29,360 bases of DNA from Candidatus Micrarchaeaceae archaeon (GTDB lineage: Archaea; Micrarchaeota; Micrarchaeia; Micrarchaeales; Micrarchaeaceae): contig JBEKES010000007.1 of NCBI GenBank assembly GCA_050013715.1, positions 1-29,360 of the forward strand, written 5' to 3'. Below the pieces are notes generated by a model. The model did not search any database. It had not been told where the DNA came from and saw only the letters and a list, made by a program, of their open reading frames with translations. Within the stretch, counting starts at the first letter, position 1. Each line of letters begins with the position of its first letter. Both the position numbers and the translations under genes were made by a program. Positions 3,925-21,835 of the stretch are shown here, one piece after another.

Positions 3925-3974
3925 CAAATAACCTAATTTAATAATATTAAGTGCCTAATCTATTAGTGATACCA

Positions 3975-5207
3975 ATGATATTCGGCAAGCCGTCAAAGCC
4001 AGAAGAAATCCAATATTCAGAAATGGAAAAATTCCTCGATTCCTCATTCGATAAGAAAATTAGCAATCTTGACTCAAGAGGATTAGTTATAACAAAGGAT
4101 CTTATTCGTGCAAAAGCAGGCTTCGAAGATGCATGTAAAACATTTGAGAAATTGAATGCAGAACCGGAAAAGGAGAATTTCTACATAGACAACACAAGCT
4201 CGATAAAAAGCCAGAAGGGCTTCTATTCCAATGCGGTAAGTCACGCAGTAGAGAACTGGGACCTTTCAATTAATGATTCACTAAACTTCTACAACCGATA
4301 CAATGCAGTATTGTCAGAGACTGAAAAATTCATAGCAGAATTGTCCAAGATAAATTCAAGCTTCAAGAAGGTTCTGTTTTCCTATTCAAGCCATCTTGAA
4401 TTGTTTAAAAAATCATTCTCGCTTATAGAAAGGCACAGGGACTCTCTAAGAAACGAATTGAATAGAAGAGCATCAGAATACTCGGAATACAAAATACTAA
4501 AGGACAAGATAACCGAATTAGATTCAGTAAACGAAAGATTAGCAAGTCTAAACCAGAAAATAAACGATTTAGGCAAGAATATTGGATCAAAAAACGACCA
4601 ATCAACAAAAGAGGAAGAAAACGAGATCAATGGGAAAATATCTGCAAAAAAAATCGAACTAAACGGCATCGAAAGCCAAATCAGAAACCTGCAGGGCAAA
4701 ATAAGCCCACTAACTCTTCCATTGGAGAGAGCTGCAAGAAAGTTCGATCATATCTCATCAAAGAAAATACAGTTGCACGTATTTACGGAGAATCCAATAG
4801 AAAACATAAAAACAGAACATGAATATGTTCAATTTAAGTCGCTTCTGGAGGAACTGGGCAAAAAAATAGAGGCAAACGAAATAGATGAAAAGAACAACAA
4901 GAATATACTGGAAAACATAACTAAAATACTCGATATGGATATGTATTCAATGATAAAGGAACTCAAGCAGTTCAGGGACAAGAAGTCAGAAATGGAACAC
5001 AATATAAAATTGCTTGAAGCAAACATTACTCGCATTGAAAATAAAAAAAATGATTCAAAGGAGGAACTGGAAAAATTCGAATACATCAAAAAAAGCGCAG
5101 GCACCACCGAAACTCAACTAAGGCAAATGAAAAGTGCTGTGGAAGGCCTCTTTTCAAAATACTATAACAGGAAAATATCAATATCTGGATTGATTATTTC
5201 CATTTAA
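3975..5207 (+). CDS. Long coiled-coil hypothetical protein
   Basis: About 410 aa, K/E/N-rich heptad pattern; no Walker motifs seen; ATG 3975 preferred to GTG 3951. Confidence 0.7.
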   Translation: MIFGKPSKPEEIQYSEMEKFLDSSFDKKISNLDSRGLVITKDLIRAKAGFEDACKTFEKLNAEPEKENFYIDNTSSIKSQKGFYSNAVSHAVENWDLSINDSLNFYNRYNAVLSETEKFIAELSKINSSFKKVLFSYSSHLELFKKSFSLIERHRDSLRNELNRRASEYSEYKILKDKITELDSVNERLASLNQKINDLGKNIGSKNDQSTKEEENEINGKISAKKIELNGIESQIRNLQGKISPLTLPLERAARKFDHISSKKIQLHVFTENPIENIKTEHEYVQFKSLLEELGKKIEANEIDEKNNKNILENITKILDMDMYSMIKELKQFRDKKSEMEHNIKLLEANITRIENKKNDSKEELEKFEYIKKSAGTTETQLRQMKSAVEGLFSKYYNRKISISGLIISI

Positions 5208-5664
5208 TCCTGTAAATTACTTTGATCAAATCTCCTATATTTGTGTCAGGTTTTATTCTATATTCATAAGGTATTCCATTATTTTCTATCAAAAATTCAG
5301 GATTATAAACAATAATGCCTGCAGTTTTATGATCCTGTGCATATCTGATTATATTACCGCTTTCTTCACCAAACAACTCATCATAAGTTGAGCAAAAAAC
5401 TATGTCCCTTTTTGATTTCGAATAGCTACCTGTATCTAAAAGCCTGCCCAGGTCTCTCAAACTAAAAGATGAATAGACAAATTCTCTTGGATTTAATCCC
5501 CTCTTTTTTACGTCATCAATCAATATCTCTAACATACTTGTACTGTCCCAGGCTCCAGACAAATCCAATATATCTAATATGGATTTTTGATTAGGCTGCG
5601 AGCTCAAATATTCTGTGAGTCTACTAGTTACTGCTTTTTTGCCGGCCTTTTTGCTCGCTTCCAT
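5194..5664 (-). CDS. Hypothetical protein (most tRNA-distal unit of the putative cassette array)
   Basis: 156-aa AT-rich ORF; its 3' end overlaps the convergent coiled-coil gene by 14 bp. Confidence 0.6.
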   Translation of the reverse strand: MEASKKAGKKAVTSRLTEYLSSQPNQKSILDILDLSGAWDSTSMLEILIDDVKKRGLNPREFVYSSFSLRDLGRLLDTGSYSKSKRDIVFCSTYDELFGEESGNIIRYAQDHKTAGIIVYNPEFLIENNGIPYEYRIKPDTNIGDLIKVIYRIKWK

Positions 5665-5746
5665 ATTATAAATTTGTAAGCAGAAATATAAATACCATTA
5701 TGTTTAAACTTTAAAAAACAGTTAGGGCACCATACATGTTATATGG

Positions 5747-5826
5747 ACGCCTTTGCAGGGCACTAGAACCAAGCAATCAGTTTCGATGACAAGTTAAGTA
5801 AAATAAGTCATTTTTCGCCCGAAGCA
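5747..5826 (+). repeat. Junction repeat copy A: about 69-bp conserved flank plus tRNA-Asn 3'-end core CGCCCGAAGCA (5816-5826)
   Basis: Hand alignment to 9046-9124 gives 59/80 identities with one gap. Confidence 0.9.
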
Positions 5827-5889
5827 AAGGTCATCAGAATACGCGACCCCCTTAACATAGTATTTTAATATCAATTTATTATGTATATT

Positions 5890-6537
5890 ATGAAAATACT
5901 AATAACTTCTACTGGGATTACAAATAAATCAATCTCGAATGCACTCAAAGAATTAGTCGGAAAAAATGTAAAGATAAAAATAGCTTTTATTCCAACAGCA
6001 GCTAATGAGAGTGACGGGGAAAAAGATTGGCTAATTAAAAATTATAACGAATGTGAAAAAGTAGGTACTGTTGATATTGTAGATATTTCTGCCCTTAAAA
6101 AGAAATCATGGTTTCCAAGGCTTAAAGAGGCAAACGTAATTGTAGTTGGTGGAGGATGGACTGCTTACCTTATGGAATGGTTTATTAAATCTGGATTAAA
6201 GAACGAACTTCCAAAATTATTAAAGACTCGTGTTTATGTTGGTATAAGTGCTGGAGGTATAATCCTAGCAAAAACAATACAAGCAAGGTCAGAATTCTTG
6301 TATGGCGATGAAGTTAATAAAGCTCCTGCAGGTTTAAGTTATATAAATTTTAATTTTAGACCACATTTAAATTCACCCTATTTTCCTAAAGTACGTGATA
6401 AATATCTTAAAACAGTTGCAGAAAGATTAACTGGTGATTTATATGCACTGGATGACAATTCTGCTATAATATATATCAATGGAAAGATAAAAGTAGTTTC
6501 TGAAGGTAAATGGAAAAAATACAGCAAAAGTAAATAA
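5890..6537 (+). CDS. Peptidase E-like protein (family S51, class I glutamine amidotransferase-like fold)
   Basis: IAFIPTAAN, VVGGGWT, YVGISAGG (nucleophile Ser), RPHLNS (His). Confidence 0.88.
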   Translation: MKILITSTGITNKSISNALKELVGKNVKIKIAFIPTAANESDGEKDWLIKNYNECEKVGTVDIVDISALKKKSWFPRLKEANVIVVGGGWTAYLMEWFIKSGLKNELPKLLKTRVYVGISAGGIILAKTIQARSEFLYGDEVNKAPAGLSYINFNFRPHLNSPYFPKVRDKYLKTVAERLTGDLYALDDNSAIIYINGKIKVVSEGKWKKYSKSK

Positions 6538-6576
6538 ATATCTTTTTAGCAATTGAGGGGTCGGAATAATCAATAG

Positions 6577-6590
6577 CGCCAGAAGCAGGG
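6577..6590 (+). repeat. tRNA-Asn 3'-end core copy (CGCCAGAAGCAGGG)
   Basis: 13/14 match to 9852-9865, intergenic, same orientation. Confidence 0.8.
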
Positions 6591-6730
6591 GATATCTTTT
6601 TGTGTCGATGCCTGAAAGTACATACTTTTACATACAAATATACGTAGAAGGAAAACTCGAACCGGGCTTGGCTAAGTGGCTAAAAGATAGTAATAAATAT
6701 TTCCATAAACAGAGTATTTTGAGTGATACA

Positions 6731-7303
6731 ATGGTAACAAAAACAGTTACAGATCTCTCTAGAGTTAAACATGAGAGTGAATCGTTTAATAGTAAGCTTC
6801 AAGGTACTGGATTCAGATTTTTAGAACAGATGGAATCTGTTGCAAATGATGCTAGAAAAGAGGGAAAAAGATTACTTTATGCTACTGCATGCCATATTGC
6901 AACTATATTTCCTGATTCAGCAAAACCAGAGATAGTTATATTAAGCCTAATAAAAAGAAAGGGATCTTTTGTTGAACAAAATAAGGAACCACGTTTCAAT
7001 GATAATTCACAAAGGATTATGCTTTATAATTTTCTTTTCGGAGAAAATCTGGAAAGAATAAGTATAAGAGAAGAAAATTTAGAAAAAACATTGCCAAAAA
7101 ACCTCAAAGATGTAGATATTGAGCCATTCTTGGAAAACCTTAAGGGGGCAGGACTTATACTTAGATATACTATTTGGTCTGCAGAAATACCCGTTGTTGA
7201 ATTAACTATATTAGGGCATGCTGTCGCCGAAAAAATAGAAGAAGCTAAGAGATGGAAAAGTAAAAAAGTAGAACCAAAAAAACTATTAAGACAACCTACT
7301 TAA
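6731..7303 (+). CDS. Hypothetical protein with possible C-terminal winged-helix (HxlR/MarR-like) motif
   Basis: ATG 6731 has GAGTGA upstream and a TATA-like TAAATAT near 6694; C-terminal LENLKGAGLI..VELTILG pattern resembles a wHTH wing. Confidence 0.6.
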   Translation: MVTKTVTDLSRVKHESESFNSKLQGTGFRFLEQMESVANDARKEGKRLLYATACHIATIFPDSAKPEIVILSLIKRKGSFVEQNKEPRFNDNSQRIMLYNFLFGENLERISIREENLEKTLPKNLKDVDIEPFLENLKGAGLILRYTIWSAEIPVVELTILGHAVAEKIEEAKRWKSKKVEPKKLLRQPT

Positions 7304-7358
7304 ATTTCTTGGGGTTCTAAAAAGTTGTATGCAACTGCAGCTCTTAGCTATTAAATTT

Positions 7359-7372
7359 CAGGGATTGAACCT
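7359..7372 (+). repeat. tRNA-Asn T-arm fragment (CAGGGATTGAACCT)
   Basis: 13/14 match to 9861-9874 (CAGGGATCGAACCT). Confidence 0.65.
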
Positions 7373-7426
7373 CCGACTATAAGATGCATTCTTTATTTTG
7401 ATTGCTAGATGACAAAGTTACATGAC

Positions 7427-7440
7427 CGCCCGAAGCAGGC
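7427..7440 (+). repeat. tRNA-Asn 3'-end core copy (CGCCCGAAGCAGG-C)
   Basis: 13/13 match to 9852-9864; 14/14 match to 9114-9127. Confidence 0.92.
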
Positions 7441-7446
7441 AACAGG

Positions 7447-7493
7447 ATGAGAAGTCCTATGCCCTTTATTTATCTCGGGCATAGTTTTTCACT
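7447..7493 (+). repeat. Hairpin-forming direct repeat, left of the vapBC module
   Basis: ATGAGAAGTCCTATGCCC-N12-GGGCATAGTTTTTCACT; CTATGCCC/GGGCATAG is a perfect stem; homologous to 8082-8124. Confidence 0.88.
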
Positions 7494-7498
7494 TATTT

Positions 7499-7846
7499 TT
7501 ATTCTATTTTCATATCTACTATATTACTCAATACTTCAAAACCATGATCTTTTGTAAGTAACTTTTCGTTTTTCGAATGGGCAGTAGAAATTATCATCAA
7601 ATCTGCATCAGCAACAATTTTTCTCATCTGCTTTAATGCACCATATAATCTCGAATACACAAGTACAACATTATCATCTATATCATAAACTTGAAACATC
7701 TGCTTTAATAGAACTAAAACTTCTGCCATTCTAGTGTCTGGAGTTCCTCTTATCACTTCCAAAAGAGTTATGGTAGAAATAGAACCGTACTGGTAGTCCT
7801 TCTTCTTACGCAACATATCTATTACAATAGAAGTATCAAATAACAT
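7499..7846 (-). CDS. vapC: VapC-family PIN-domain toxin
   Basis: LFDTSIVID, STITLLEV, ADADLMI, LLTKDHGF: the four conserved acidic PIN positions. Confidence 0.92.
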   Translation of the reverse strand: MLFDTSIVIDMLRKKKDYQYGSISTITLLEVIRGTPDTRMAEVLVLLKQMFQVYDIDDNVVLVYSRLYGALKQMRKIVADADLMIISTAHSKNEKLLTKDHGFEVLSNIVDMKIE

Positions 7847-7850
7847 TTAT

Positions 7851-8018
7851 TCAGCCAAGTTTGAATTTTGCCCTGAATAATTTATAACTTTTTTCAATGT
7901 TTTCAATATCTTTTTTTGTTAAAAGCATCTCTAATTTTTTAAAGGCACTCAAGCCTGCAGCTTCCTTTGCCTTTAGTAAGCGTATATCCTTAACTTCTAC
8001 TTTTATCTTTCCAGCCAT
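7851..8018 (-). CDS. Putative VapB antitoxin (55 aa; not in ORF track)
   Basis: MAGKIKVEVKDIRLLKAKEAAGLSAFKKLEMLLTKKDIENIEKSYKLFRAKFKLG*; ends 4 bp before the vapC ATG; GTGA upstream and TTTATAAA at 8048-8055. Confidence 0.75.
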   Translation of the reverse strand: MAGKIKVEVKDIRLLKAKEAAGLSAFKKLEMLLTKKDIENIEKSYKLFRAKFKLG

Positions 8019-8081
8019 AATCTCACTTGATATAATTAGGAAGTCTATTTATAAAAATGTTAGCAATTAGTAAGCATTACT

Positions 8082-8124
8082 ATGAGAAGTCCTACGCCTT
8101 TTTGTGTTGGGCATGGATTTCACT
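8082..8124 (+). repeat. Hairpin-forming direct repeat, right of the vapBC module
   Basis: ATGAGAAGTCCTACGCCT-N9-GGGCATGGATTTCACT; first 13 nt identical to 7447-7459. Confidence 0.88.
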
Positions 8125-8175
8125 AGTTTATTATTGTATTTAAAATTTATAAGACTTTGCAGTCCTAATTAATAT

Positions 8176-9012
8176 ATGCGTGAATTAGATGAGCCATTGC
8201 CTTCTTTAGAAGAAGCTAGACGTGAAACTGAAAAACGACTAGAAATAGTTAAAAACCTAAAACCAAAAATCGAAACTTTTGCTGATGCAGCAATTCTTGC
8301 TGGATCAGTTGCTATGGGAAAGAATTTTTCCGTAAGGAAGAAATCCGATATAGATCTAATAATTTTAATCAAAAGAGAAAATATAGATTATCTGTTTGAA
8401 TCAAACATATTTCCAATGACTGAACAGAGAGCAGAAGCAAAGGATTTATTTAAAAGTGGAGAAATTGATCACTTTACTATCATTGAAATCATAAATGAGG
8501 TTGAAGTACAATTTCATATATGGGATAAGGAATCCCACTTTAGATCAGAATTACTAGAGTTACCAAATCCAAAGGTATACAATATATGGAAAAATAGAAA
8601 ATCTCATTTGTCAGGCTATGATTTTGCAGGTAAAGAAAGAACTTCTAAAATAAAAAATTTAGTAGAATACCAATATGGTGATGTTTACGATTATCCACCT
8701 TACTTTATCAGTGAAGGTAATTTTGTAACACGGCAGCCCATAAATAACGTAATTATGGATCCTACTTTACTTTTCACAAAAGATTCCAAATTATTAGCTA
8801 ACATAGATGAACTTTGGACTAAATTAGCTAAACGTTTATTAGAAGAATCCAATGGTAAAATAGATTTAAGCAAAAAAAGTCTTTTCTTGGCAATACCTGG
8901 TCGGTGGAATTTTTCAAAGGAATCAAAAATTAAATTTGAAAACAGACAAAGAGAAGAGCTAGTTAAACTTGGTATTCCAGAAAGTCAATTAAACATTATT
9001 CCTCAACTTTAA
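8176..9012 (+). CDS. Pol-beta superfamily nucleotidyltransferase-domain protein
   Basis: AILAGSVAMG...SDIDLIIL (hGS-x-DxD signature), third acidic position near EVQFHIW. Confidence 0.8.
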   Translation: MRELDEPLPSLEEARRETEKRLEIVKNLKPKIETFADAAILAGSVAMGKNFSVRKKSDIDLIILIKRENIDYLFESNIFPMTEQRAEAKDLFKSGEIDHFTIIEIINEVEVQFHIWDKESHFRSELLELPNPKVYNIWKNRKSHLSGYDFAGKERTSKIKNLVEYQYGDVYDYPPYFISEGNFVTRQPINNVIMDPTLLFTKDSKLLANIDELWTKLAKRLLEESNGKIDLSKKSLFLAIPGRWNFSKESKIKFENRQREELVKLGIPESQLNIIPQL

Positions 9013-9045
9013 TTTATGCTATTAGGGGTCGGACCTGCCGTATAT

Positions 9046-9127
9046 ACGCCGCCTCAGGGCGTACAAACTAAGCATTATCTTTCGACGTCAAACTAAGCAA
9101 AATAAGCCATTTTCGCCCGAAGCAGGC
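9046..9127 (+). repeat. Junction repeat copy B: conserved flank plus tRNA-Asn 3'-end core (9114-9126)
   Basis: Homologous to 5747-5826; core 13/13 identical to 9852-9864. Confidence 0.92.
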
Positions 9128-9191
9128 CGTATAATTTAATTATGAGGCCTTTTCGATATTGTTTAATATTGAATGATGTTGAATAATATTG

Positions 9192-9773
9192 ATGAAAAAT
9201 TCAAAGTTAATAAATGTTATTGTGATTCATGGCTGTCCTTCGGATGAAGAGAAGGCAGCTAATCCGAAAACGAGAACATACGATAAGCACTGGATACCTT
9301 GGATAAAGAAAGAGCTACAATCCAGAGGCATAAAAGTAGACACTCCGCTTATGCCAAAACCTTGGTATCCAGATTATAATAAATTCAAAAGTAAATTTGA
9401 GAAATACAAAGTTACAGAAAATACAATACTAATAGGACATAGTTGTGGCTGTGCATTTTTAGTTCGTTGGCTTGGAGATACAAAACAAAAAGTTGATAAG
9501 CTTATACTTGTAGCACCTTGGAAGATACCCGATAAGGATGATAAATACAGGAAGGCATTTTATACATATAATATTGACAAAGCAATAAAATCAAGAGTAA
9601 AAGAAATTATAATGTTCACAGCTGATAACGAAGAAGACGATGGTAAGAAAAGTTTAGGAATCTTCCATAAAGCTTTAGGTGGAAAGGTTATAGAAATTAA
9701 AGGAAGAGGACATTATACATTTGGAGACATGGGAACAGAAGAATTCCCAGAACTATTGAAAGCTATAGAATAA
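9192..9773 (+). CDS. RBBP9/YdeN-family alpha/beta hydrolase
   Basis: VIHG, HWIPWIK, LIGHSCG nucleophile elbow, LILVAP, GRGHY. Confidence 0.88.
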   Translation: MKNSKLINVIVIHGCPSDEEKAANPKTRTYDKHWIPWIKKELQSRGIKVDTPLMPKPWYPDYNKFKSKFEKYKVTENTILIGHSCGCAFLVRWLGDTKQKVDKLILVAPWKIPDKDDKYRKAFYTYNIDKAIKSRVKEIIMFTADNEEDDGKKSLGIFHKALGGKVIEIKGRGHYTFGDMGTEEFPELLKAIE

Positions 9774-9851
9774 GTAGACCTTGGAACTAACCCGAACTTC
9801 AGACGACAAAATAAGGATTAGTGTATGCTCTTCGACGACAAGTTTTATTTA

Positions 9852-9923
9852 CGCCCGAAGCAGGGATCGAACCTGCAACCTATTGGTTAACAGCCAATCG
9901 CTCTACCATTGAGCTATTCGGGC
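9852..9923 (-). tRNA. tRNA-Asn(GTT)
   Basis: Minus strand GCCCGAA/TTCGGGC-G acceptor, anticodon arm ATTGG-CT-GTT-AA-CCAAT, T-arm GCAGG-TTCGATC-CCTGC. Confidence 0.97.
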
Positions 9924-9986
9924 ATGTAGTTGTTTTGATAAGTATTATCTAATAAGTTTTGTTTTTGATTGAACTTTTCCAAAAGT

Positions 9987-10667
9987 TTAGAAGAATGGGA
10001 ATGGTTTTGAAAGATTTATTACTCGTACGTAAACCGCTGACTTGTTGAATGAATCTGAAGGCTCCACTGTGTCATTCATGTAATTGTAGCTTAATGATCC
10101 AAACACAGTTCTAATATCTGTTTTTGCATATGTAAATATCTTTGCTCCACTTTCATGGAATAATTCGAATGTTCCTAGTATATGAAAATTGCCGCTGAAG
10201 AATGCATACAACTTTGGAGGTGATTCATCCTCATGGAAATTGAGCATCGACCTTATCAATGTGCCTGAATCCTTTATCTCGATGCATTTGACCTTGTCAA
10301 CTTTCTTGAGTTCCTTTGCCTCCTTGTATGGATTGGTCATCAGCTCCATTATCGGAGCTCTCAATGACTTGAAGTTTCCCTGTTCTGTAATTATCTGATC
10401 CTTCATTTCATAATTACCCAACGATTCCGTCGGGTTGTACACAAAGAATTTTCCTATCTTGTCAACTGTCACATAATAAATAAGTCGAATGTCCCCTATT
10501 TTTTCCCCTGCTGACATAAGTTTGTATTTGCTTCCCTCTTTCACTGCTTTTATGTGACCTCCGGGATAATCGAAATTCTGTCCAGCGAAGTCGGACATTC
10601 CATTCAATTCTATGTAATAGGCAGTTAGCGCATTTTCTACTTTTGACTTTGACTTCGCTTTTCTCAT
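9987..10667 (-). CDS. Hypothetical protein
   Basis: 226-aa ORF, last gene of a closely spaced minus-strand run; AGTGA upstream. Confidence 0.7.
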   Translation of the reverse strand: MRKAKSKSKVENALTAYYIELNGMSDFAGQNFDYPGGHIKAVKEGSKYKLMSAGEKIGDIRLIYYVTVDKIGKFFVYNPTESLGNYEMKDQIITEQGNFKSLRAPIMELMTNPYKEAKELKKVDKVKCIEIKDSGTLIRSMLNFHEDESPPKLYAFFSGNFHILGTFELFHESGAKIFTYAKTDIRTVFGSLSYNYMNDTVEPSDSFNKSAVYVRVINLSKPFPFF

Positions 10668-10685
10668 TCATTATCACTTATATTA

Positions 10686-11555
10686 TTATACGTATTTTGC
10701 CAGCTCGCTTATTAGGTACATGACTGCATAGGCTGGTGCATATACTATAGGAAAAGTGAGAGCACCCTGGCCCAATGCCGCATAGTCGCTGGCTATTGTT
10801 GCCCTTGTGGTAAGCGTTATGTTGCTCTGCTTGTAGATCAATGGGCTTGCTATTGAACTTACGTAAACATTCAAATGGTAAACTCCTGGCTCGTTGTCAT
10901 ATATCTGATAGGGGAAGCTGCCCTGCGTATGGTGCAGTGCGATTACTGTTGTGCTGTAATTCCATGCTGGGAGTCCGTGCACTGTTATGTTGAATGGGGA
11001 ATCTGAAACTCCCGTATTGTTTATTGTTACATATACTGTTGCAGGCTGTCCCGGCCCTGCGCTTATGCTTGTTGGATTAACGTCAAGTTTGAAGACATCT
11101 GGAGTTACATTGACATAGGCAGTGAATTTTACTGATCCAAGCTTCGAATAATTGCCTATGTTCGTTGCCGTAAGGTTGAATCTATAGGTGCCGTTCTGCG
11201 CATTGGGCGCAACGGTTATTTTTATTGACGGATTAGTATTGTACAATGCGGAATTCTGCGTTATCCAATTGTTTGGCAAACTCGATGCTATGAGCTCGTC
11301 CCATCCTATACTGAAGAATGTTCCAGAGCTGTTCTGGGTTGCAGAGGAAATTGTCACATAGAATGTTTGTCCAGGTCCTACCTTTCCCAGATATACTGTT
11401 CCGTTGGATTGAATGTAAGATGCATTATAGGGTTCTGTTATATTGACGTAGGGCCTTGGTATTATTGCTGGCGCACCGATGGTGCTGCCTGCCATTGCTA
11501 TGCCCATTACTGCAAACGCAAGAACCATTATTATTAAAATGTGCTTTGATGACAT
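10686..11555 (-). CDS. Secreted/membrane-anchored protein with two Ig-like beta-sandwich segments
   Basis: N-terminal signal peptide, ITVAPNAQNGTY and VTINNTG patterns, many N-x-S/T sequons, hydrophobic C-terminus. Confidence 0.75.
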   Translation of the reverse strand: MSSKHILIIMVLAFAVMGIAMAGSTIGAPAIIPRPYVNITEPYNASYIQSNGTVYLGKVGPGQTFYVTISSATQNSSGTFFSIGWDELIASSLPNNWITQNSALYNTNPSIKITVAPNAQNGTYRFNLTATNIGNYSKLGSVKFTAYVNVTPDVFKLDVNPTSISAGPGQPATVYVTINNTGVSDSPFNITVHGLPAWNYSTTVIALHHTQGSFPYQIYDNEPGVYHLNVYVSSIASPLIYKQSNITLTTRATIASDYAALGQGALTFPIVYAPAYAVMYLISELAKYV

Positions 11556-12167: not shown

Positions 12168-13376
12168 CTATTTCTTCTCATCATCCTTTTCCTTGCTTAC
12201 CTGCAACTTAACATCGCTGCCGTTTCTTGTGATCCTTATGTCAAGGCTCTCGTTGCCTATCATTTTCCTTATCTCATCGTAGGTATAGGCTCCTATGTCG
12301 TTCTTAGAGGCGCCCTTGCTCTGCAGGATTTTGCTTCTCTGCTCCTTTATGCGCTCTTTCTTGATTTGCTCGTAAACAAGCGAAAGCCTTGGCACCTCTT
12401 TTGTCTCGAAGAGATGGTCTATGTCAAGAGCAATTGTCTTGTATCCGTTGTCCTGCAGTATGAATGGAATAACCGCATTGAATTCATTTTTCAAATGTTC
12501 CACTTCCATTCCTATGTCTTTCTTGGGACCTGCAATAAGAAACACTTCACTCTCAAGAAATCCGACAAATATGTTCTGCTCGCTGTTTTTTGTTACGTCT
12601 TGCAGCAATTGCGATATAAGCCTCAATATTACAAGCGCGGAATCTGCGCCGAACCTGTTGGCGTATTCGCCAAGGTTCCCCACTTTTATTGTTCCTATGG
12701 TGTATTCTTCGTTTTCTTTTATCGAATGCTCTATTTCCTTTGATAGTCCTTCCTCATCGGGAAGATCTATGAGTGGATCGAACCTCTTGCCCTTCTTTTT
12801 AAGGAATATGGTGACAAGGCTTCGCAGCTCGACAGGATCAAATGGTTTTTTGATATAATAATCGGCACCATACTTAATGCCCTTGAACCTGTTGCTTGTG
12901 GGGTCCATGGCGCTTATTAGTATTACAATTGTGCTGCTTATGCTCGGATCGCTCTTTATGGTTTGGCAGATGTCAAGTCCGTCCTTGTGCGGAAGCATTA
13001 GATCCAGTATCACAAGGTCAGGCTTGTTCTTTCTCACAAAGGAAATGGCCTCCCCTCCATCATATATTTGGTTTATCTCAAAGCCCCTTCCTATGGAAAG
13101 CGCCATAAGCTTGTTGATGTTCTTGTCATCTTCTACTACCAGCACTTTTCTCACTGAACCCTGCTCCTGAAGCGGATAGTAGGTAAGCACTCCCCCTCTG
13201 CTTCTCGAGGCAATTACCTTCATTTTTTCTAATTCGGAAAGCGCTTTCTTGAGCCTGTCCTTTTCTATGCCTCTGCTGAATGCCATGTCGCTGAGCTCGT
13301 TGAACGAGATCTGCTGGCGCTCGTTTATTACATCGAAAATATCGCTGATGCTTCCAGCATTAGTGTTCTCTCCCAT
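12168..13376 (-). CDS. Response regulator: N-terminal wHTH, receiver domain, C-terminal degenerate GGDEF-like domain
   Basis: REC motifs VLVVEDD, DLVILDLMLPHKDG, ISA, KKPF; downstream DPLIDLP...NRFG...FVGFLESEVFLI follows GGDEF-domain spacing; GGTGA upstream of ATG 13376. Confidence 0.88.
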   Translation of the reverse strand: MGENTNAGSISDIFDVINERQQISFNELSDMAFSRGIEKDRLKKALSELEKMKVIASRSRGGVLTYYPLQEQGSVRKVLVVEDDKNINKLMALSIGRGFEINQIYDGGEAISFVRKNKPDLVILDLMLPHKDGLDICQTIKSDPSISSTIVILISAMDPTSNRFKGIKYGADYYIKKPFDPVELRSLVTIFLKKKGKRFDPLIDLPDEEGLSKEIEHSIKENEEYTIGTIKVGNLGEYANRFGADSALVILRLISQLLQDVTKNSEQNIFVGFLESEVFLIAGPKKDIGMEVEHLKNEFNAVIPFILQDNGYKTIALDIDHLFETKEVPRLSLVYEQIKKERIKEQRSKILQSKGASKNDIGAYTYDEIRKMIGNESLDIRITRNGSDVKLQVSKEKDDEKK

Positions 13377-13516
13377 ATTGGTCACCTAATATATCATAAC
13401 AACAATAACAAATATTAGGCTTTTGATGCTTTGATGCTATTGCCGTTCGGAATTTTAGCATACATAACTGCATAGTGTATATATTAAAAAGCTTTATGTC
13501 TAATAATAATGATTGG

Positions 13517-14587
13517 ATGGCACTATTCAGCAACAAAAAGAAAAGCAAGCCGCATAAGCAGCATGCACAGGCAAGTGAAGAGAATCCTCAATATCAGGTA
13601 AAGAAGAAGCCAAACAACAAGCCCATCATTATAGGAATAATCATAGTTATAATAGCGCTCATAGCGGTTTATTTCCTGTTCGTAGTCAATGTCAACGAAT
13701 CTGTAATAAATTCCGCAACTACTGTTAATGTAACCCAATCAGGGAATCTATACAGCATAAACTCAAACCAGTATTATATTTCACTGTCGTCAATTTCGCT
13801 CACATCCGGGAAGGCATACATACATGTGAGCAAGTTCCCGATATTTGTGAATCCAATACTTAACGTGTCTTTGACGCTCAACAACATAACAAAAATCAAC
13901 GACGGCACAAATTATGCAAACATTGCCTTCCAATTGCAATCCCTAAGCCCCAGCAGCATATCAGTGAAAATAACACCAACTCCCACAAGCCTTCAGATAG
14001 CGCCTGACACGCAGGACATAAGGACCCTTAACGGCAATCTTTATTCTGGCAATCAGAATTCTTATACAACTACAATCCCATCAACCACTACAATACAGGG
14101 CAAATCAACCACAAGCACAGTTGGTTCATCCACAACTACCATAGCACAAAACACAACGCTTGCAAACATAACTGCAGCACTTAAAATAGACAGTTACTAT
14201 CCAATTATGCTGAATTTCAGCAAATTGTATGCAAATACAACGCAGTGCACTCCGGTAATGTACAACACATCCTATATCAAGTCCTTCGGACACGCACCAC
14301 ATGGCCAGGATACCTACTACAATGTGACTCCCTATGTGCCATATAAAATATACAACAATACAACAAGCCTAGGAAACGGCAAATATGAAGTGCTGTTCAA
14401 GGTTGAAACCACAGATCCTGGATTCAACAACACTGTTGCGCTTACAATAGCGATTAGCTCTTCAAACAGGAATATCATAAATGACACTCTTAGCGGAATC
14501 TTCGAGGACTTGACCCTCAGCGAATGGAAAAGCAGCTATCAAGGTGCATTGTCTGTAGGAAACGCCTGCGGAGTAGTAGTGCCTTAA
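13517..14587 (+). CDS. Membrane-anchored extracellular protein with Thr/Ser-rich linker
   Basis: Basic N-terminus, one TM helix (IIIGIIIVIIALIAVYFLF), TTTIPSTTTI...STTTI linker, many sequons; start 13517 preferred. Confidence 0.75.
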   Translation: MALFSNKKKSKPHKQHAQASEENPQYQVKKKPNNKPIIIGIIIVIIALIAVYFLFVVNVNESVINSATTVNVTQSGNLYSINSNQYYISLSSISLTSGKAYIHVSKFPIFVNPILNVSLTLNNITKINDGTNYANIAFQLQSLSPSSISVKITPTPTSLQIAPDTQDIRTLNGNLYSGNQNSYTTTIPSTTTIQGKSTTSTVGSSTTTIAQNTTLANITAALKIDSYYPIMLNFSKLYANTTQCTPVMYNTSYIKSFGHAPHGQDTYYNVTPYVPYKIYNNTTSLGNGKYEVLFKVETTDPGFNNTVALTIAISSSNRNIINDTLSGIFEDLTLSEWKSSYQGALSVGNACGVVVP

Positions 14588-17329: not shown

Positions 17330-17462
17330 CAAGTAAAAAGCAGAAGCAAGCTCGCAGCTCTAGATTCTATGCTATAAAATGGTTTCATACAAAACACCGG
17401 TTTAGTACACTTCAACCGATGTTGATTTAGGATTAATCAAAAATAGATGTTTTAAGAAAGTT

Positions 17463-18062
17463 TTACTTTATTTTCCTATTTATCTTTTTATTACCGTAAA
17501 TCATCTTTTGTATTTTATTTAAAATGTAAAGAAGATCTGGATCAGAAACCTTCATTTTTGCAGTTAAAAAGAATGTCTCAAATTTCTTTTTATCGTTTTC
17601 TTTAGAGTATAAGTAAAGTTGTATTATGTAATCAAGTGCATCTATTTGTTTAACAAGTCTGGCTTCTTTGGAGCTTTGATCATTAAGTTCTTTCCAAAGT
17701 TTAGTAAATTCTCCTCTATCTTTCTTTCCTAGATATGAAAGCATTCTTAGATGGTTCTTGTGTTCTATTTCGTGCTTTTTCTTATTACTTACTACTTGTA
17801 AACTTTCTTTGTATCTTGTTGCTATATCTCCAGTTATTACTTCATTTATATCATGTGATAAAGCCATTAGCATTGCTTTTGGTGCATTTAGTTTAAGATC
17901 TTTTGCAATTATGTAAGTGAAAAGTGCCGTACTGAAAGAATGATCAGCAACACTTTCAGGATCTTTAACTCCTGTACGTACCCAACCAGTTCTTTTGACT
18001 CTTTTTAATTTGTCTACTTCTATCATGAAATTAAGAATTTTATCTAGTTGTTCTCTTTTCAT
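17463..18062 (-). CDS. HD-domain phosphohydrolase (HDDC2/YfbR-like 5'-deoxynucleotidase)
   Basis: LKRVKRTGW, ESVADHSF, MALSHDINEVITGDI, EARLVKQIDALD. Confidence 0.92.
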   Translation of the reverse strand: MKREQLDKILNFMIEVDKLKRVKRTGWVRTGVKDPESVADHSFSTALFTYIIAKDLKLNAPKAMLMALSHDINEVITGDIATRYKESLQVVSNKKKHEIEHKNHLRMLSYLGKKDRGEFTKLWKELNDQSSKEARLVKQIDALDYIIQLYLYSKENDKKKFETFFLTAKMKVSDPDLLYILNKIQKMIYGNKKINRKIK

Positions 18063-18066
18063 ATAA

Positions 18067-18474
18067 TCAACTTTTTAGATGCTTATCTAATAGTTCCCAA
18101 TTTTCTCCTATGACTATTGGTTTAAGTGCAATCAATTCTTCCCGATAACTTATTTGTCTTGGAATATCTTTCATTAAGAATATTGGTATTTCTTTATCAA
18201 ATGCTTTTCCCATTTCCAATAATGCACCGCCACCTATATATCCTTCTATTCCATTTTTGTCATAATTAGCAACATAGATTGCATTTGACTTATCAATTTT
18301 TCTAAAGTGGTCTCTAATTAAATCGTATTGAATCTTAGCAAGAGCAGTTTCTTCCAGATGATGAAAATCTTGCATACTTGGTAAAAATACCTCATATCCT
18401 CTTTTTTCAAGTTCTTCCTTAATCTTATATAACTTATCAAAGAATTTTGCACTAGAACATAATGTTATTTTCAT
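18067..18474 (-). CDS. Nucleoside 2-deoxyribosyltransferase-like (flavodoxin-like fold) small protein
   Basis: KITLCSS..F, LEKRGYEVFLP, HFRKIDKSNAIYV, G...LEMGKAF..EIPIF resemble NDT/DNPH1-type proteins. Confidence 0.65.
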   Translation of the reverse strand: MKITLCSSAKFFDKLYKIKEELEKRGYEVFLPSMQDFHHLEETALAKIQYDLIRDHFRKIDKSNAIYVANYDKNGIEGYIGGGALLEMGKAFDKEIPIFLMKDIPRQISYREELIALKPIVIGENWELLDKHLKS

Positions 18475-19130
18475 AAAATCCCTTCAAACACCATATCATA
18501 ACTCTTTTTTACAGGACATTCTGCATATTTAGCTACTAGTTTCATTAAGCCTTGAATTCCTAATTTGTTAACAATTCTTTTTGTAGCAAGATAACTGCTT
18601 TTATAGAATTCCAGTGCATCATTATTACTTTTTGACTGAATTTTCCATCTTTCCTTTAAAGAAAATGCTAGATATTTTATTTTGGATTTACCTTTCCAAC
18701 CAAAATTCTTTCCTGTTCCATCAACTAACATTCCTAATCCTTCCAGAAGCCATTGTGGTGTAGGTGCACCAACGAAGTTCTCGTAAAATATATGGTTCAT
18801 TTCATGTGTAAGTGTTTGATGAAATAGGTGGTTATTATCAGTTAATCTATTCCAAACAGAAGGTGCGAAGATAAATATCCTTCTTTTATCTGAGACTGCA
18901 GCTTCCCATTTTCCTGTCTTCCATCCTAATTCTTTGTCGAACTCTTTCCTTGAATAACAAAGAACTATTCTGAAATTTGGAGTTATACCAGAAAACATAT
19001 TTTGATTTAATTTATATGCTCTGGTAAAATATTTTTTTGTTATGGCGATATCTCTTTTAAAGATCTCCTCTTTTGGAATGCTAGTCGCTTTTATTGAAAT
19101 ATTATTTATTAGAAGTCTTTTTTTGGACAT
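18471..19130 (-). CDS. Peptidase MA-like HExxH metalloprotein
   Basis: LTHEMNH followed by PQWLLEG (gluzincin third ligand) and FY.SSY; stop overlaps the next ATG (ATGA). Confidence 0.78.
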   Translation of the reverse strand: MSKKRLLINNISIKATSIPKEEIFKRDIAITKKYFTRAYKLNQNMFSGITPNFRIVLCYSRKEFDKELGWKTGKWEAAVSDKRRIFIFAPSVWNRLTDNNHLFHQTLTHEMNHIFYENFVGAPTPQWLLEGLGMLVDGTGKNFGWKGKSKIKYLAFSLKERWKIQSKSNNDALEFYKSSYLATKRIVNKLGIQGLMKLVAKYAECPVKKSYDMVFEGIL

Positions 19131-19195
19131 ATCAATCTATACAATTTGTACGGTGTTATTTAAAGAATTAGTACCTAAATAATCTTGGTGTTTAA

Positions 19196-19939
19196 ATGAC
19201 ATTACCTCATGATTATAGCAAATTAGTAGAATATTACGAAGTTTTGGAAGAAGGAGGAGCTGATAGAAATTCATTCTTGGAAAAGATCCTCAAAAATTAT
19301 AAAGCAAATAAAGTTCTAGATTTCACTTGCGGAACTGGTGTACAGACATTGTGGTTAACGAAGAAAGGTTACAATGTAATTGGTTCAGATATTAGCTCTG
19401 CAATGTTAAAAATTGCAAAACAAAAGGCAAAAGACGCCAAACTAAATGTGAAATTTTACAAAGGAGACATGAGAAGTTCAAAATTTGGAACTTTCGATGC
19501 AGTTATAACAATATTCAACGCAATAGGTCATCTTAGTAAACCAGATTTTGAAAAAACAATTAGAAATATAGGTAACAATTTGAAAAAAGATGGACTGTAT
19601 ATATTTGATATATTTGATCTAGAATATATGAAGAAGAATTTTATAACATATAAATTTTTTGATGTTGCTAAAGAGATAAAAGATACAAAATTGGTAAGGA
19701 CAAACAACAATAGATTGGATAAAGAGAATGGATTAATGTTAATTAATCAGGAAACTTTCATTCAGGAAGGATTAAGCAAGCCAAAAGTATTCAAAGAACG
19801 CTGGACAATGCAAATTTATAGTAAAGCCCAACTAAGAGATATGCTTAAAAAAAATGGATTTGAAGTAATTGGTCAATATGGTATTGATGGGTCTAAAATA
19901 AAAGGTATGTATATACTAACTGTTGCTAGGAAAAGGTAA
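19196..19939 (+). CDS. Class I SAM-dependent methyltransferase
   Basis: VLDFTCGTG motif I, GSDISSAML, GDMR, FDAV, LKKDGLYIFD. Confidence 0.93.
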   Translation: MTLPHDYSKLVEYYEVLEEGGADRNSFLEKILKNYKANKVLDFTCGTGVQTLWLTKKGYNVIGSDISSAMLKIAKQKAKDAKLNVKFYKGDMRSSKFGTFDAVITIFNAIGHLSKPDFEKTIRNIGNNLKKDGLYIFDIFDLEYMKKNFITYKFFDVAKEIKDTKLVRTNNNRLDKENGLMLINQETFIQEGLSKPKVFKERWTMQIYSKAQLRDMLKKNGFEVIGQYGIDGSKIKGMYILTVARKR

Positions 19940-19950
19940 CTCTCTATTTC

Positions 19951-20179
19951 AGTCCAGTTCTACTCGAGTAATAAAGTACACCTCAACTCAAAAAGGTCAA
20001 GGAAGTCCAGTTTTTCCCTGCAGGGCAAAAGGTCATCAAAATGGCCTTTAAGGAGTCTAGTTTTTTAACATTAGCCTATAGATATGTAAAAAAACTTTTA
20101 AATGAAGTCTAGTTTTTTGGAGTTAGCTATATCCCCCGCTTCTGTAAAGGGACTTAGCCAAAAAGCTAGACTTTTCCTT
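19951..20179. repeat. Array of AAGGAAGTCYAGTTTTT-type repeats at about 51-bp period, each opening a hairpin, plus one inverted copy
   Basis: Copies at 19999-20016, 20050-20066 and 20101-20118, partial AGTCCAGTT at 19951, inverted copy at 20160-20179. Confidence 0.8.
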
Positions 20180-20266
20180 AGAAACGAATATAAAAATGGA
20201 AAAGGCTTCTGGCATTATTTCTCTAGTTTTTGTGTTTGGTTTTCAAATTATATTCCTGCTCCTTCT

Positions 20267-20542
20267 TCAACCTTGAGAAGCATAGCCGACTTGGCAAATC
20301 GCTTCGATAACAAGAAGGATACCAACAAGGATAGCTGGAGCTTTCCAATGCCCAAGATAGACAGCCCAAACCATAGACCCAACGACGATGATGAATAATG
20401 CCCATAGTCCAACACGAACTAAACCAGAGAAAAAGACATTATTCATTAAGTTATCCACTTCAGTGGATATTCCACTATAGATTCCAGAAAAGAAATCATA
20501 TACGAAACTCGGCATTCTCTTACCGATATTATATATGCTCAT
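20267..20542 (-). CDS. Small hypothetical membrane protein
   Basis: 91 aa with two hydrophobic helices. Confidence 0.5.
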   Translation of the reverse strand: MSIYNIGKRMPSFVYDFFSGIYSGISTEVDNLMNNVFFSGLVRVGLWALFIIVVGSMVWAVYLGHWKAPAILVGILLVIEAICQVGYASQG

Positions 20543-20561
20543 TTAACTATAAAAAGCCAGT

Positions 20562-20654
20562 TTATCGTATAACTGTTTTAGATTTATCACCCACAGCCAC
20601 GCTATCAATCGCATTGTAGAGCTCGCCTTTATCTCCTACCATTTGTGTATTCAT
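20562..20654 (-). pseudogene. Possible 30-codon gene fragment resembling the C-terminal part of a PDZ domain
   Basis: MNTQMVGDKGELYNAIDSVAVGDKSKTVIR*; the ELxNAI...VGDK...VxR pattern recalls HtrA-type PDZ ends. Confidence 0.25.
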
Positions 20655-20747
20655 ATTAATAATTAGTAATCGGTATTTTAAATAGATCCTAAATTCCTAA
20701 TAATAAAATATAAATACTTAAACTGTAACAATATTGTAAGTGATTTA

Positions 20748-21008
20748 ATGAGTAACCCGTTACAAGAAATAGGAAATGAAATTTGGGGCGCTATTGTATT
20801 AGCAATAACAGCAGGATTGTTCATACTTATTTTGAGTACATTAGGTAGTGCTGTTACTAGTGTATCGCCACAGGCAGCGGGTGTAACTAATTATGGTATA
20901 ATTGCCATAGTGATAATTGCAGGAGGAGCTGGAATTGCTGGCTTCATTAAACTTATACAGATAATATCCGAATCCGCAGGTGAAAGTCTTAATGGTAGAG
21001 GATTATAA
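20748..21008 (+). CDS. Small two-TM-helix protein
   Basis: 86 aa, two Gly/Ala/Ile-rich hydrophobic helices; AGTGA upstream of ATG. Confidence 0.65.
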   Translation: MSNPLQEIGNEIWGAIVLAITAGLFILILSTLGSAVTSVSPQAAGVTNYGIIAIVIIAGGAGIAGFIKLIQIISESAGESLNGRGL

Positions 21009-21036
21009 GTAAATTAAAGGAAAAAAGTGTAATTAT

Positions 21037-21255
21037 ATGGGAATTATGGATTATATTAAGAAAGTAAGGAAGAAAATAAAAGAACAGGATTTGGAAGAAT
21101 CAGCTAAAAAGAGAGCCTGGCAAGAAAGACAACGGGATCTAAAGCATATGGAACAGGATGAATACCACAAAGAAAAGGGTCGCCAGGAAGCTCAATATGA
21201 TTTTAAGCAAAAAAGGAAAAATTGGAAAAAGGAACTTAAAGACAGTTTTAACTAG
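21037..21255 (+). CDS. Small highly charged helical protein
   Basis: 72 aa, K/E/R/Q-rich, follows the 86-aa gene after 28 bp. Confidence 0.55.
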   Translation: MGIMDYIKKVRKKIKEQDLEESAKKRAWQERQRDLKHMEQDEYHKEKGRQEAQYDFKQKRKNWKKELKDSFN

Positions 21256-21352
21256 TGTTTTGTTAGTATGGACATATTCTTTTAATTACAGGACCTAAAT
21301 ACCCTCCAGCTTCATCTTCAGCGAAGCAACATCATCTATATATTTGTATAAA

Positions 21353-21835
21353 TCAGCTTGCCCTGATATTTATCGTAGCAATCTCAGCATATTGAAAAGT
21401 AGAGTTATTAGATGTTGTATATTGAGCCCATATAGTGTTATTTACATTCCCGTTAGAAATAAATGAAACTGGTACTGTTTGCGCTGATAGTAATCCACTT
21501 GTTGAATACAATGTATTTATTGGATAAGATGAAAAAGAAGACGTAACAGAGGTTAAATTATTTGGTGTAAAAGCAAAATTTGCACTTGTCCAAGTAGTTC
21601 CACTATTTTGGCCTAATCTAACTGTAACAATATTTGTGGTAGAATTCAAAGAAGCATCCTGACAGGAAAATGGTATATAAATTTTTGTACATTGGTAAAA
21701 GTAGCTTGTATTATATCTTATGGGTTTATTTGAAAAATGGATTAAAAGTGATATTATCGCTATTATTATTAAAATACTCACAACAAGTATTAAAATTTTT
21801 TTATTTGAATTTTTTGATTTAGGCATATAAGACAT
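21353..21835 (-). CDS. Membrane-anchored protein with pilin-like globular domain
   Basis: One N-terminal TM; C-x7/8-C, Q-x-SG-x-T and W-x-x-YT pattern shared with 11603..12157. Confidence 0.65.
   Translation of the reverse strand: MSYMPKSKNSNKKILILVVSILIIIAIISLLIHFSNKPIRYNTSYFYQCTKIYIPFSCQDASLNSTTNIVTVRLGQNSGTTWTSANFAFTPNNLTSVTSSFSSYPINTLYSTSGLLSAQTVPVSFISNGNVNNTIWAQYTTSNNSTFQYAEIATINIRAS

Follow-up and report, generated by a model that had tools for sequence, protein, structure and literature searches.

A probable stack of integrase-less, one-gene units behind the tRNA-Asn gene of a Micrarchaeota genome

Results and discussion

In a 29,360-nucleotide (nt) stretch of DNA from a Candidatus Micrarchaeaceae archaeon (hereafter, the window), the segment from 5208 to 9864, which ends in a tRNA-Asn gene, is probably a tandem stack of integrase-less tRNA-Asn units. 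These would be non-autonomous relatives of tyrosine-integrase elements and were likely moved in trans. Coordinates refer to the window unless another genome or contig is named; the assembly to which it belongs comprises 976,605 bp in 72 contigs, with a GC content of 0.383 and 93% completeness. The proposed sequence of events is as follows. At least six units of 0.6 to 1.1 kb, each holding a single gene or a toxin-antitoxin pair, would have been inserted into the 3' end of tRNA-Asn by site-specific recombination, with the crossover inside a 10- to 13-bp core, GCCCGAAGCA(GG), such that the tRNA is regenerated and a copy of the core is left between units. On the plus strand a unit would then read core, (arm B), cargo, (arm A), core, and once circularized it would have A-core-B as an attP-like site. 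The cargo of such a mini-unit would sit where larger elements hold their integrase, in some cases with a promoter-like leader of its own. Excision and insertion would most likely be performed in trans by integrases of the type found in relatives, and the units would make up a pool of cassettes that circulates among genomes and families. From comparison of sequences we infer the crossover position, the mobilization in trans, the passage through circles, and any activity that the units of this strain have today.

The tRNA-Asn 3' end and its copies

The anchor of the stack is an intact tRNA-Asn(GTT) gene on the minus strand at 9851 to 9924 (ARAGORN; Rfam RF00005, 77.2 bits). Its 3' end, read on the plus strand at 9852 to 9864, is the anchor core and the equivalent of attB/attL; CGCCCGAAGCAGG is the plus-strand reading of the final 13 nt ahead of the discriminator. 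Pattern searches place four copies of this core on the plus strand. Two match at 13 of 13 positions and have C as the next base, in place of the G of the tRNA (9114 to 9126 and 7427 to 7439, the latter being also the start of the arm module B described below). Another matches at 12 of 13, with C changed to A at position 5 (6577 to 6589), and the most distal recognizable core matches at 11 of 11 and diverges afterwards (5816 to 5826). Against the 14-mer CGCCCGAAGCAGGG, the site at 9852 has no mismatch, those at 7427, 9114, and 6577 have one each, and that at 5816 has two; for 7427 and 9114 the single mismatch is a G-to-C change at the last base.

At up to three mismatches, the 14-mer has six matches in the window, compared to 0.59 expected, and none of 100 shuffles reached six. 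The sixth match, at 3248 with three mismatches, is unrelated to the array. Within the 976,605-bp assembly, the 13-mer has three exact matches and four at one mismatch or fewer, all of them in the tRNA-Asn locus, and hence it is not a common intergenic word. The initial annotation of this DNA had reported four recurrences of the tRNA-Asn 3' end, all co-oriented and between open reading frames (ORFs), with core spacings of 761, 850, 1687, and 738 bp and a C in place of G after two of them. Each of these statements was borne out by the pattern searches and shuffles. The array has a GC content of 0.30 to 0.34, compared to 0.383 genome-wide and 0.40 to 0.45 in the right flank beyond the tRNA.

The stack is framed by genes that belong to the chromosome. 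On the left, a 418-amino-acid (aa) gene of family F7 (3951 to 5207, plus strand) is kept near tRNA-Asn in two relatives, G008 and G009 (relatives are designated here by genome number). On the right, genes for proteins of 226 and 289 aa, of families F2 and F1 (9987 to 11555, minus strand), are syntenic with tRNA-Asn in the compared relatives; both assignments come from synteny clustering. Neither of the two right-hand genes has an integrase domain in Pfam. The 226-aa gene was considered as a hidden recombinase and rejected, as it has no family match and is also conserved at the empty site of G008.

Arm modules and junction types

Two arm modules adjoin the cores. Module A, of about 95 nt, lies on the side facing the tRNA 3' flank. 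One copy precedes the core at 9114 (9022 to 9113, plus strand; nhmmer E = 7e-28) and contains the near-palindromic motif TTCGACGTCAAA at 9081 to 9092, and a second precedes the core at 5816 (5722 to 5815, plus strand; nhmmer E = 1.2e-23). Copies in six relatives (G001, G005, G006, G007, G009, and G012) have 77 to 86% identity. Module B, of about 60 nt, follows the core at 7427, and the whole (7427 to 7499, plus strand; nhmmer E = 4.7e-19) reads as core, GGCAACAGGATGAGAAGTCC, a hairpin CTATGCCC..GGGCATAG, and a T run, with DNA fold z scores of -2.4 and -2.2 for the hairpin versus shuffles. A partial, core-less copy of module B that covers model positions 18 to 67 is found at 8079 to 8128 (plus strand; nhmmer E = 9.5e-10; repeat D4), within a fifth, decayed junction at about 8062 to 8128 whose core has been lost at about 8062 to 8078. 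The 1687-bp interval therefore consists of two units, one with vapBC and one with a nucleotidyltransferase gene. Likewise, because module A lies to the left of the core at 5816, the 156-aa gene there represents a further cassette, the distal end of which is gone. From the conserved gene at 3951 to 5207 up to the tRNA, the stack thus counts no fewer than six units.

Four junction types were found (A-core-tRNA, A-core-B, x-core-B, and A-core-x), together with a second right-hand module, B2. As far as can be judged from their sequences, these four types are the outcome that would be expected from tandem insertion of circles, with an A-core-B site recombining into flank-core-tRNA. A further motif, CTTCGACGACAAG, is located 9 nt from the tRNA core (9830 to 9842, plus strand). 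Motif comparison also places it behind the cores of other tRNAs and of elements that carry an integrase.

Module A has an anticodon-arm-like hairpin and a T-loop-like box and was therefore considered as a pseudo-tRNA or permuted tRNA. This was rejected: no acceptor or D-arm pairing was seen by eye, and both ARAGORN and Rfam were negative. Across 60 kb of arrays, Rfam returned tRNA only and no other RNA family.

Variation at the tRNA-Asn locus and cassettes shared between genomes

In same-genus genomes, synteny holds for families F2, F1, F3, and F4 on the tRNA-body side, and the segment behind tRNA-Asn differs. The number of extra cores behind this tRNA is four in G007, six in G005, one each in G009 and G012, and zero in G008. 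Gene order at tRNA-Asn is thus not fixed across relatives, and contents vary exactly at the cores, as the initial annotation would predict. Beyond these genomes, the 11-mer is present in 148 of 248 genomes of the order (a count that includes the unpublished G003), with 0 to 2 matches per genome for the reversed-pattern control. Among the places listed, co-oriented core clusters on the same contig occur in at least 23 genomes and in both families of the order. For the arrays that were fetched, the median core-to-core interval is 1084 bp (n = 50; 23 intervals of up to 1 kb, 18 of 1 to 2 kb, and 9 of more than 2 kb).

Several cassettes are shared between genomes at 77 to 92% nucleotide identity, with homology that ends at the cores, whereas the flanking core genes are 64 to 72% identical or cannot be aligned. 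A cassette at 4447 to 5024 in G012 matches 12999 to 13574 in G180 at 80%, core to core in both, with flanks at 64%, and it is unit 1 in the former and unit 6 in the latter. Another, at 4656 to 5343 in G087 and 4045 to 3360 in G088, is 90% identical over 688 bp, again core to core in both, with flanks at 72%. It is the second unit in both genomes and the tRNA-proximal units differ, which lends indirect support to the suggestion in the initial annotation that the newest unit may lie closest to the tRNA. Between families, 9498 to 10053 in G180 and 9346 to 8805 in G119 are 91% identical with flanks that cannot be aligned; this cassette adjoins the tRNA in G119 and is third in G180. A match of 92% over 1369 bp between G119 and G101 begins at a core in both, and one of 88% over 1712 bp between G005 and G101 has one end at a core in G005 and unalignable flanks. 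A Fic/Doc unit present in G007, in G009, and in a G005 cluster without a tRNA also begins exactly at the core. The shifts of position and the homology that stops at cores support the earlier proposal that the units are separately transferable and bounded by the tRNA-derived core. On these alignments, such sharing appears hard to reconcile with passive decay alone.

Among the units of the window, the S51 peptidase cassette has DNA homologues in five genomes (73% in the array of G007, and also G187, G171, G016, and G127), and the match to the G007 array ends 36 to 38 nt inside the window's cores. The vapC gene has one DNA homologue, in G185.

Passive decay is nevertheless the strongest of the alternatives. 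It holds that the units are dead remnants of integrase elements of 4 to 10 kb, whittled down by deletion and never mobile as such. Larger integrase elements bounded by the same core do exist, erosion is visible in G044, whose integrase is truncated, in G007, whose S51 gene is broken, in the window (core lost, 8079 to 8128), and in partial, core-less B2 matches of G119, G012, and G088, some intervals of 2.5 to 4.8 kb are without an integrase, and the contigs gave no sign of activity in this strain. We consider this explanation unlikely. Decay does not account for sub-kilobase units that recur core to core across genera and families at 77 to 92% identity (flanks 64 to 72% or unalignable) and at different array positions, or for modules A and B that are kept at 77 to 86% across species whose coding DNA is 65 to 73% identical. 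Moreover, the ORFs are mostly intact, and no window unit contains an integrase fragment.

Besides its tRNA-Asn array, G005 has two more clusters of Asn cores, of four and two cores, away from tRNA-Asn. The first (L032, G005:C34:105734-112338) contains four Asn-type cores and no tRNA, and its terminal core lies 9 nt past the stop codon of a 282-aa gene; several of its cassettes duplicate those of the G005 tRNA-Asn array at 76 to 89% identity. Secondary sites are thus used. A second tRNA-Asn(gtt) gene of G005 stands beside a tRNA-Asp gene and an integrase gene (L034, G005:C23:62425-62616). Its acceptor differs, with no match to the core, and it may be part of an integrated element.

Integrases in relatives and a common arm motif

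The initial annotation described the units as integrase-less and held that integrase pseudogene fragments within them would mark eroded large islands; no integrase or fragment of one was detected in the units or elsewhere in the assembly with the PF00589 profile, tblastn, or hidden Markov models (HMMs). The tblastn search with 11 integrases of relatives gave nothing significant in the assembly and nothing inside units. Three integrase HMMs searched against 4,726 ORFs gave two matches (E = 0.0015 and 0.0035), which, from their position, we take as probable zinc-ribbon similarity. For serine recombinases, PF00239 had no match in this assembly and none in any of the five genomes searched. The family searches comprised PF00589 and PF00239. 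The missing integrase is to be read against an assembly that is 93% complete and in 72 contigs, and its absence is unproven.

In three relatives, PF00589 integrase genes start 70 to 130 nt from tRNA-Asn, in elements of 3.9 to 10.2 kb bounded by the same core. G186 has a 257-aa integrase in an 8.9-kb element with a methylase/ThaI pair, and in G187 the element, of 10.2 kb, encodes a UvrD-type helicase and a 433-aa integrase that has a zinc ribbon. In G044, a 227-aa integrase with its catalytic domain cut short belongs to a 3.9-kb element, the far end of which is a core plus module B2; B2 is also the far end of many mini-units. The integrases beside tRNA-Asn fall into two families. The 433-aa type has 26 to 37% identity to integrases adjoining tRNA-Glu in G007 and G008 and is distantly related to the archaeal XerA (4a8e, E = 1.7e-5). 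The 257-aa type of G186 is 63% identical to a G007 integrase at tRNA-Arg(tct) and 65% identical to a G012 integrase at tRNA-Lys. An integrase of about 325 aa that adjoins tRNA-Ala in G007 is set beside the 257-aa type by its similar length, not by sequence.

A motif of the form TT(T/C)NNACG(A/T/G)CAA follows the core in the integrase elements at tRNA-Asn (G186), tRNA-Arg(tct) (G007), and tRNA-Lys (G012). Read in the sense of the tRNA, the near-palindromic motif is TTTTACGACGACAA in G186, TTTCAGACGGCAA in G007 at tRNA-Arg(tct), and TTTACTACGACAA in G012 at tRNA-Lys; in the genome studied here it is CTTCGACGTCAA or TTTCGACGACAA. It occurs in the latter after cores at tRNA-Arg, -Phe, -Leu, -Glu, and -Asn, and of the 12 matches to the pattern in this genome, 6 adjoin tRNA 3'-end cores. 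Next to the motif there usually come a T-loop-like box and, after it, a promoter-like stretch, and the gene behind this arm is the integrase in integrase elements and the cargo, often with a conserved leader, in mini-units. What the att-proximal ends share with those of autonomous elements are motifs and modules, not whole arms. This common arrangement fits mini-units as non-autonomous derivatives in which, to judge from the arms, cargo may have replaced the integrase.

A different enzyme could also be envisaged. In this explanation the cassettes are moved at several tRNAs by a non-classical recombinase, either an unrecognized host enzyme or a structure-guided single-strand mechanism of the integron or IS200/IS605 kind. 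Six tRNAs are stacked in this genome with different cores and a common arm motif and no detectable integrase, hairpins lie beside the core in B and B2, and the arms appear too varied for one classical attP. We give this explanation little credence. Tyrosine integrases sit as expected in the elements of relatives that have the same core and arm motif, and incompleteness of the metagenome-assembled genome is the simpler account of a missing integrase. Hairpins near cores occur only in modules B and B2. The A-plus-core regions show no folding advantage over shuffles (z = 0.21, -0.36, -1.06, -1.37, 0.30, and -0.12), and RNAalifold on 13 copies of module A gave only two stems of 2 to 3 bp, at -2.95 kcal/mol. 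Within 25 nt of the cores, the attC-type boxes GTTRRRY (R') and RYYYAAC (R'') were found at 1 of 5 and 0 of 5 cores, respectively. A boundary repeat equal to the tRNA end also fits site-specific recombination better than it fits a miniature inverted-repeat transposable element of the IS200/IS605 type or of other transposon origin. Finally, it is scarcely credible that the repeats are a conserved regulatory or processing motif or a local duplication. A brief GC-rich word in the space separating AT-rich genes might act as a terminator or a promoter, and module B ends in a hairpin and T run. The word is, however, the tRNA's own 3' end, is unique to the locus, is strictly co-oriented with the tRNA, and delimits segments swapped between genomes, and other stacks use each tRNA's own 3' end.

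G008 and G009 have a single PF00589 gene each, that of G008 beside tRNA-Glu; the 3.5-kb locus that surrounds the gene of G009 yielded no tRNA. The lineage that includes this assembly, G008, and G009 seems to be without a stand-alone Xer-type recombinase.

Circles, empty sites, and points against a mobile stack

Data at the level of the strain were assembled Logan contigs of public runs. Contigs from four other peat runs have the same order as the array in the window and break at every core, and the loose contig ends at cores are array junctions of other organisms. Viral contigs, in which a free virus or plasmid with attP was sought, had no matches to the patterns of B and B2. Among metagenome contigs, four loci matched, one of them the same array on a 38-kb contig, and none had terminal repeats indicating a circle. 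In one run (X5), a single 123-nt contig with a depth of 3.9 joins 9114 to 9177 directly to 7427 to 7457 (31 nt on that side). It consists of a core, 51 nt of the left end of the hydrolase unit, and a second core with module B behind it. An assembly artifact or, in another strain, a very small leftover unit could give such a contig, and it is not counted here for or against excision.

Several observations weigh against a stack of mobile, trans-mobilized units. The whole assembly has no PF00589 match at E ≤ 0.1, and the trans-acting enzyme of this strain is hypothetical. In assembled contigs, no excision, empty site, circle, or polymorphism of this strain was seen. The arms are heterogeneous (A, B, B2, and others) and some units have no recognizable arm, so given this variety some units need not remain mobilizable. 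There are signs of decay in the core lost at about 8062 to 8078, the mismatch at 6577, the broken S51 gene of G007, and the truncated integrase of G044. Secondary structure is not conserved in the A-plus-core regions, and inverted core-type sites could not be identified, so that any exact recombination chemistry is provisional. Lastly, a search of 248 genomes gave no DNA homologue of the 156-aa, 190-aa, nucleotidyltransferase, or hydrolase unit, and as a result the argument for mobility in the window draws mostly on analogy with the cassettes of relatives.

Stacks at other tRNA genes

Each of the 19 tRNAs found in this genome was scanned with its own 3' end. The initial annotation had proposed a search for similar stacks at other tRNAs, and these were found at tRNA-Arg, -Phe, -Leu, -Glu, and -Ala. 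The largest, at tRNA-Arg(gcg), has 11 extra co-oriented copies of the 11-mer, one on contig C29 (L063, C29:10318-10393) and ten on contig C6 (L062, C6:66-11714), with spacings of 0.44 to 2.2 kb. C6 begins 65 nt ahead of a core, which suggests that the assembly broke within the tRNA-Arg array. Its cargo includes a DDE transposase, a methylase fragment, a PIN protein, a ParE-like toxin, an ankyrin protein, and many unknowns, with no integrase; the transposase looks like an insertion sequence (IS) inserted in a unit. The smaller stacks have two extra copies at tRNA-Phe (C3:21034-22660) and one each at tRNA-Leu(gag) (C47:4294-5103), tRNA-Glu(ttc) (C33:8757-9661), and tRNA-Ala(cgc), where the copy is 5 kb off (C9:690-5714).

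A broader reading would extend the tRNA-Asn case to a tRNA-anchored cassette system of Micrarchaeota with the role of an integron. One-gene cassettes from a shared pool, each bounded by a tRNA 3'-end core and conserved arms and some of them with a promoter-like leader, would pass between genera and families. They would be stacked at tRNA-Asn, -Arg, -Phe, -Leu, -Glu, and -Ala of one genome and moved in trans by retargetable tyrosine integrases, and this would be one of the main ways in which accessory genes enter and leave genomes of 1 Mb such as these. The integrases would keep their recognition of the arms while the specificity for the core switches. We regard the chances of this broader reading as about even.

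A copy of the arm motif at C5:3203 adjoins a repeated tRNA-like end (GAACACCCAACC) that is not called by ARAGORN.

Comparison with known systems

The initial annotation interpreted the array as mobile mini-cassettes accreted at a tRNA, integrase-less in cis, within an integron framework. The first part stands, while non-autonomous derivatives of tRNA-targeting elements provide a better frame than integrons. "Integron-like" is apt as a functional analogy but not as a mechanism, since there is no IntI, no attC hairpin or R boxes, genes lie in both orientations, and there is a leader of the cassette's own. A classical integron was rejected for want of IntI, of attC, and of a cassette layout of the Pc type; the search for PF00589 in the whole assembly (E ≤ 0.1) placed no IntI-type recombinase gene beside the insertion site. 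Integron cassettes are mostly co-oriented and promoterless, whereas the array genes are on both strands and a promoter-like leader precedes the gene of one or more cassettes in the window.

Other site-specific systems offer closer parallels. CIMEs, known from accretion in streptococci, pdif modules of Acinetobacter plasmids, and IMEX, which use Xer, are non-autonomous site-specific elements mobilized in trans. They resemble the units described here in having short cargo modules between recombination sites, a recombinase encoded elsewhere, and site-specific accretion, and they differ in their recombinases and sites, in their bacterial hosts, and in that they are not known to form a tRNA-anchored, multi-unit stack of one-gene cassettes. 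In Sulfolobus, "gene capture" after partition of SSV-type integrases, pNOB8-type integrases, and trapped elements at tRNA genes are known. The tyrosine integrases of these archaeal elements likewise target tRNA genes and leave trapped elements; unlike them, the present units are not flanked by split integrase halves and are far smaller and exchangeable.

As in tRNA-targeting integrative elements, the tRNA is regenerated and intact, and its 3' end is directly repeated at the boundary farthest from it. Islander requires an integrase for each member, and arrays of three or more make up only 4 cases among 3,919 islands (PMC4383910). The tandem islands described there share with the present stack the insertion at tRNA 3' ends, the regenerated tRNA, the displaced 3' fragment at each boundary, and the tandem arrays; the five or six units here differ in being 0.6 to 1.1 kb long and in that none has an integrase. 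In the tycheposon islands of Prochlorococcus, successive integrations at one tRNA push older elements inward (10.1101/2020.12.28.424599). Partial tRNAs and degenerate remnants, accessory cargo for a streamlined genome, and tyrosine recombinases are points in common, whereas tycheposons, as described there, carry an integrase and the present units are archaeal, one-gene, and integrase-less, with conserved arms. Core-to-core sharing of cassettes across families is, in comparison with tycheposons, a feature of the present arrays. A paper on archaeal integrons deals with canonical IntI/attC systems, and the word tRNA occurs zero times in it (PMC9668308). According to that paper, mostly single-gene cassettes at a fixed site, common integrase-less arrays (CALINs) for which trans action has been proposed, and cargo of toxin-antitoxin pairs, GNAT, glyoxalase, and DinB proteins are shared likenesses (PMC9668308). 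Unlike integrons, the array here is anchored at a tRNA gene, with no attI next to an intI gene, and has arms on both sides of its cassettes.

No description of such arrays in Micrarchaeota or other DPANN archaea was found in the literature searched, with subscription journals outside its scope. What is distinctive is the combination of one-gene units, no integrases, conserved arms, leaders in some units, core-to-core exchange across families, and an archaeal host. DPANN archaea have tiny genomes, and their acquisition of accessory genes is poorly understood. The locus and its relatives suggest a modular route in which single genes between a tRNA-derived core and short arms pile up behind tRNAs, and the cassettes that different families have in common are far more similar than their core genomes. 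Finders of the Islander type, which expect an integrase per element, and finders of attC/IntI integrons would miss such arrays, and their extent is therefore probably underestimated. An integrase family with the same arm motif at tRNA-Asn, -Arg, and -Lys, and putatively -Ala, would be a natural example of core retargeting with the arms kept, which is relevant to integrase engineering. If mobilization in trans holds true, this would be a second, independent platform for cassette capture, in archaea.

Cargo genes and neighboring features

The cargo of the most distal unit is a 156-aa ORF on the minus strand (5194 to 5664) that has no family match in Pfam, NCBIfam, or PADLOC. It is followed by a gene for a PepE-like S51 peptidase (5881 to 6537, plus strand; Pfam PF03575, E = 6.6e-24). 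The next unit (6680 to 7303, plus strand) comprises a leader-like, promoter-like block at about 6680 to 6725, recognized by its recurrence, and a 190-aa ORF from the ATG at 6731 that has no family match in Pfam or NCBIfam. A vapC gene of the PIN type (7499-7846, minus strand; Pfam PF01850, E = 5.9e-9; NCBIfam VapC, E = 4e-8, which is below the cut-off) lies downstream of a 55-aa ORF on the same strand (7851-8018) that has no family match and is, from its position, the putative antitoxin. The gene for a 278-aa protein (8176 to 9012, plus strand) has a weak match to Pol-beta-type nucleotidyltransferases (Pfam PF18765, E = 8e-4, below the cut-off), and the unit nearest the tRNA encodes a serine hydrolase, a YdeN/RBBP9-type alpha/beta hydrolase (9189 to 9773, plus strand; Pfam PF06821, E = 1e-12). 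Pfam thus agrees with the initial annotation on the S51 peptidase, PIN/VapC, and Ser_hydrolase; its nucleotidyltransferase is weakly backed, and its "wHTH-like" call for the 190-aa protein found no backing in Pfam, NCBIfam, or PADLOC. For that protein the Atlas search points only weakly to a MarR_2 cluster (0.84), and the best Atlas match (0.90) is to hypothetical clusters only.

A conserved block of about 40 nt (..TATAAATAT.. followed by AAACAGAGTATTTTGAGTG, 5 to 9 nt, and ATG) stands ahead of 12 unrelated ORFs in this genome. The leader (..ATATAAATATCTAATAAAACAGAGTATTTTGAGTG, 5 to 9 nt, ATG) has 12 occurrences in the genome, and 6 of these are inside tRNA arrays, including one at 6707 in the window. 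From its sequence, the block looks like a shared promoter plus leader that cassettes may bring with them. On account of this block, the start of the ORF at 6602 to 7303 probably shifts to the ATG at 6731, giving the 190-aa product. Across arrays, the cassette cargo includes VapC, Fic/Doc, ParE, MazF, AbiE, GNAT, glyoxalase, DinB, SRPBCC, and PadR proteins plus a P-type ATPase, which is typical accessory or addiction content.

Farther along the window, a second long AT-rich stretch extends from 17400 to 24000, with a GC content of 0.25 to 0.33 and a 1605-aa ORF (21881 to 26698).

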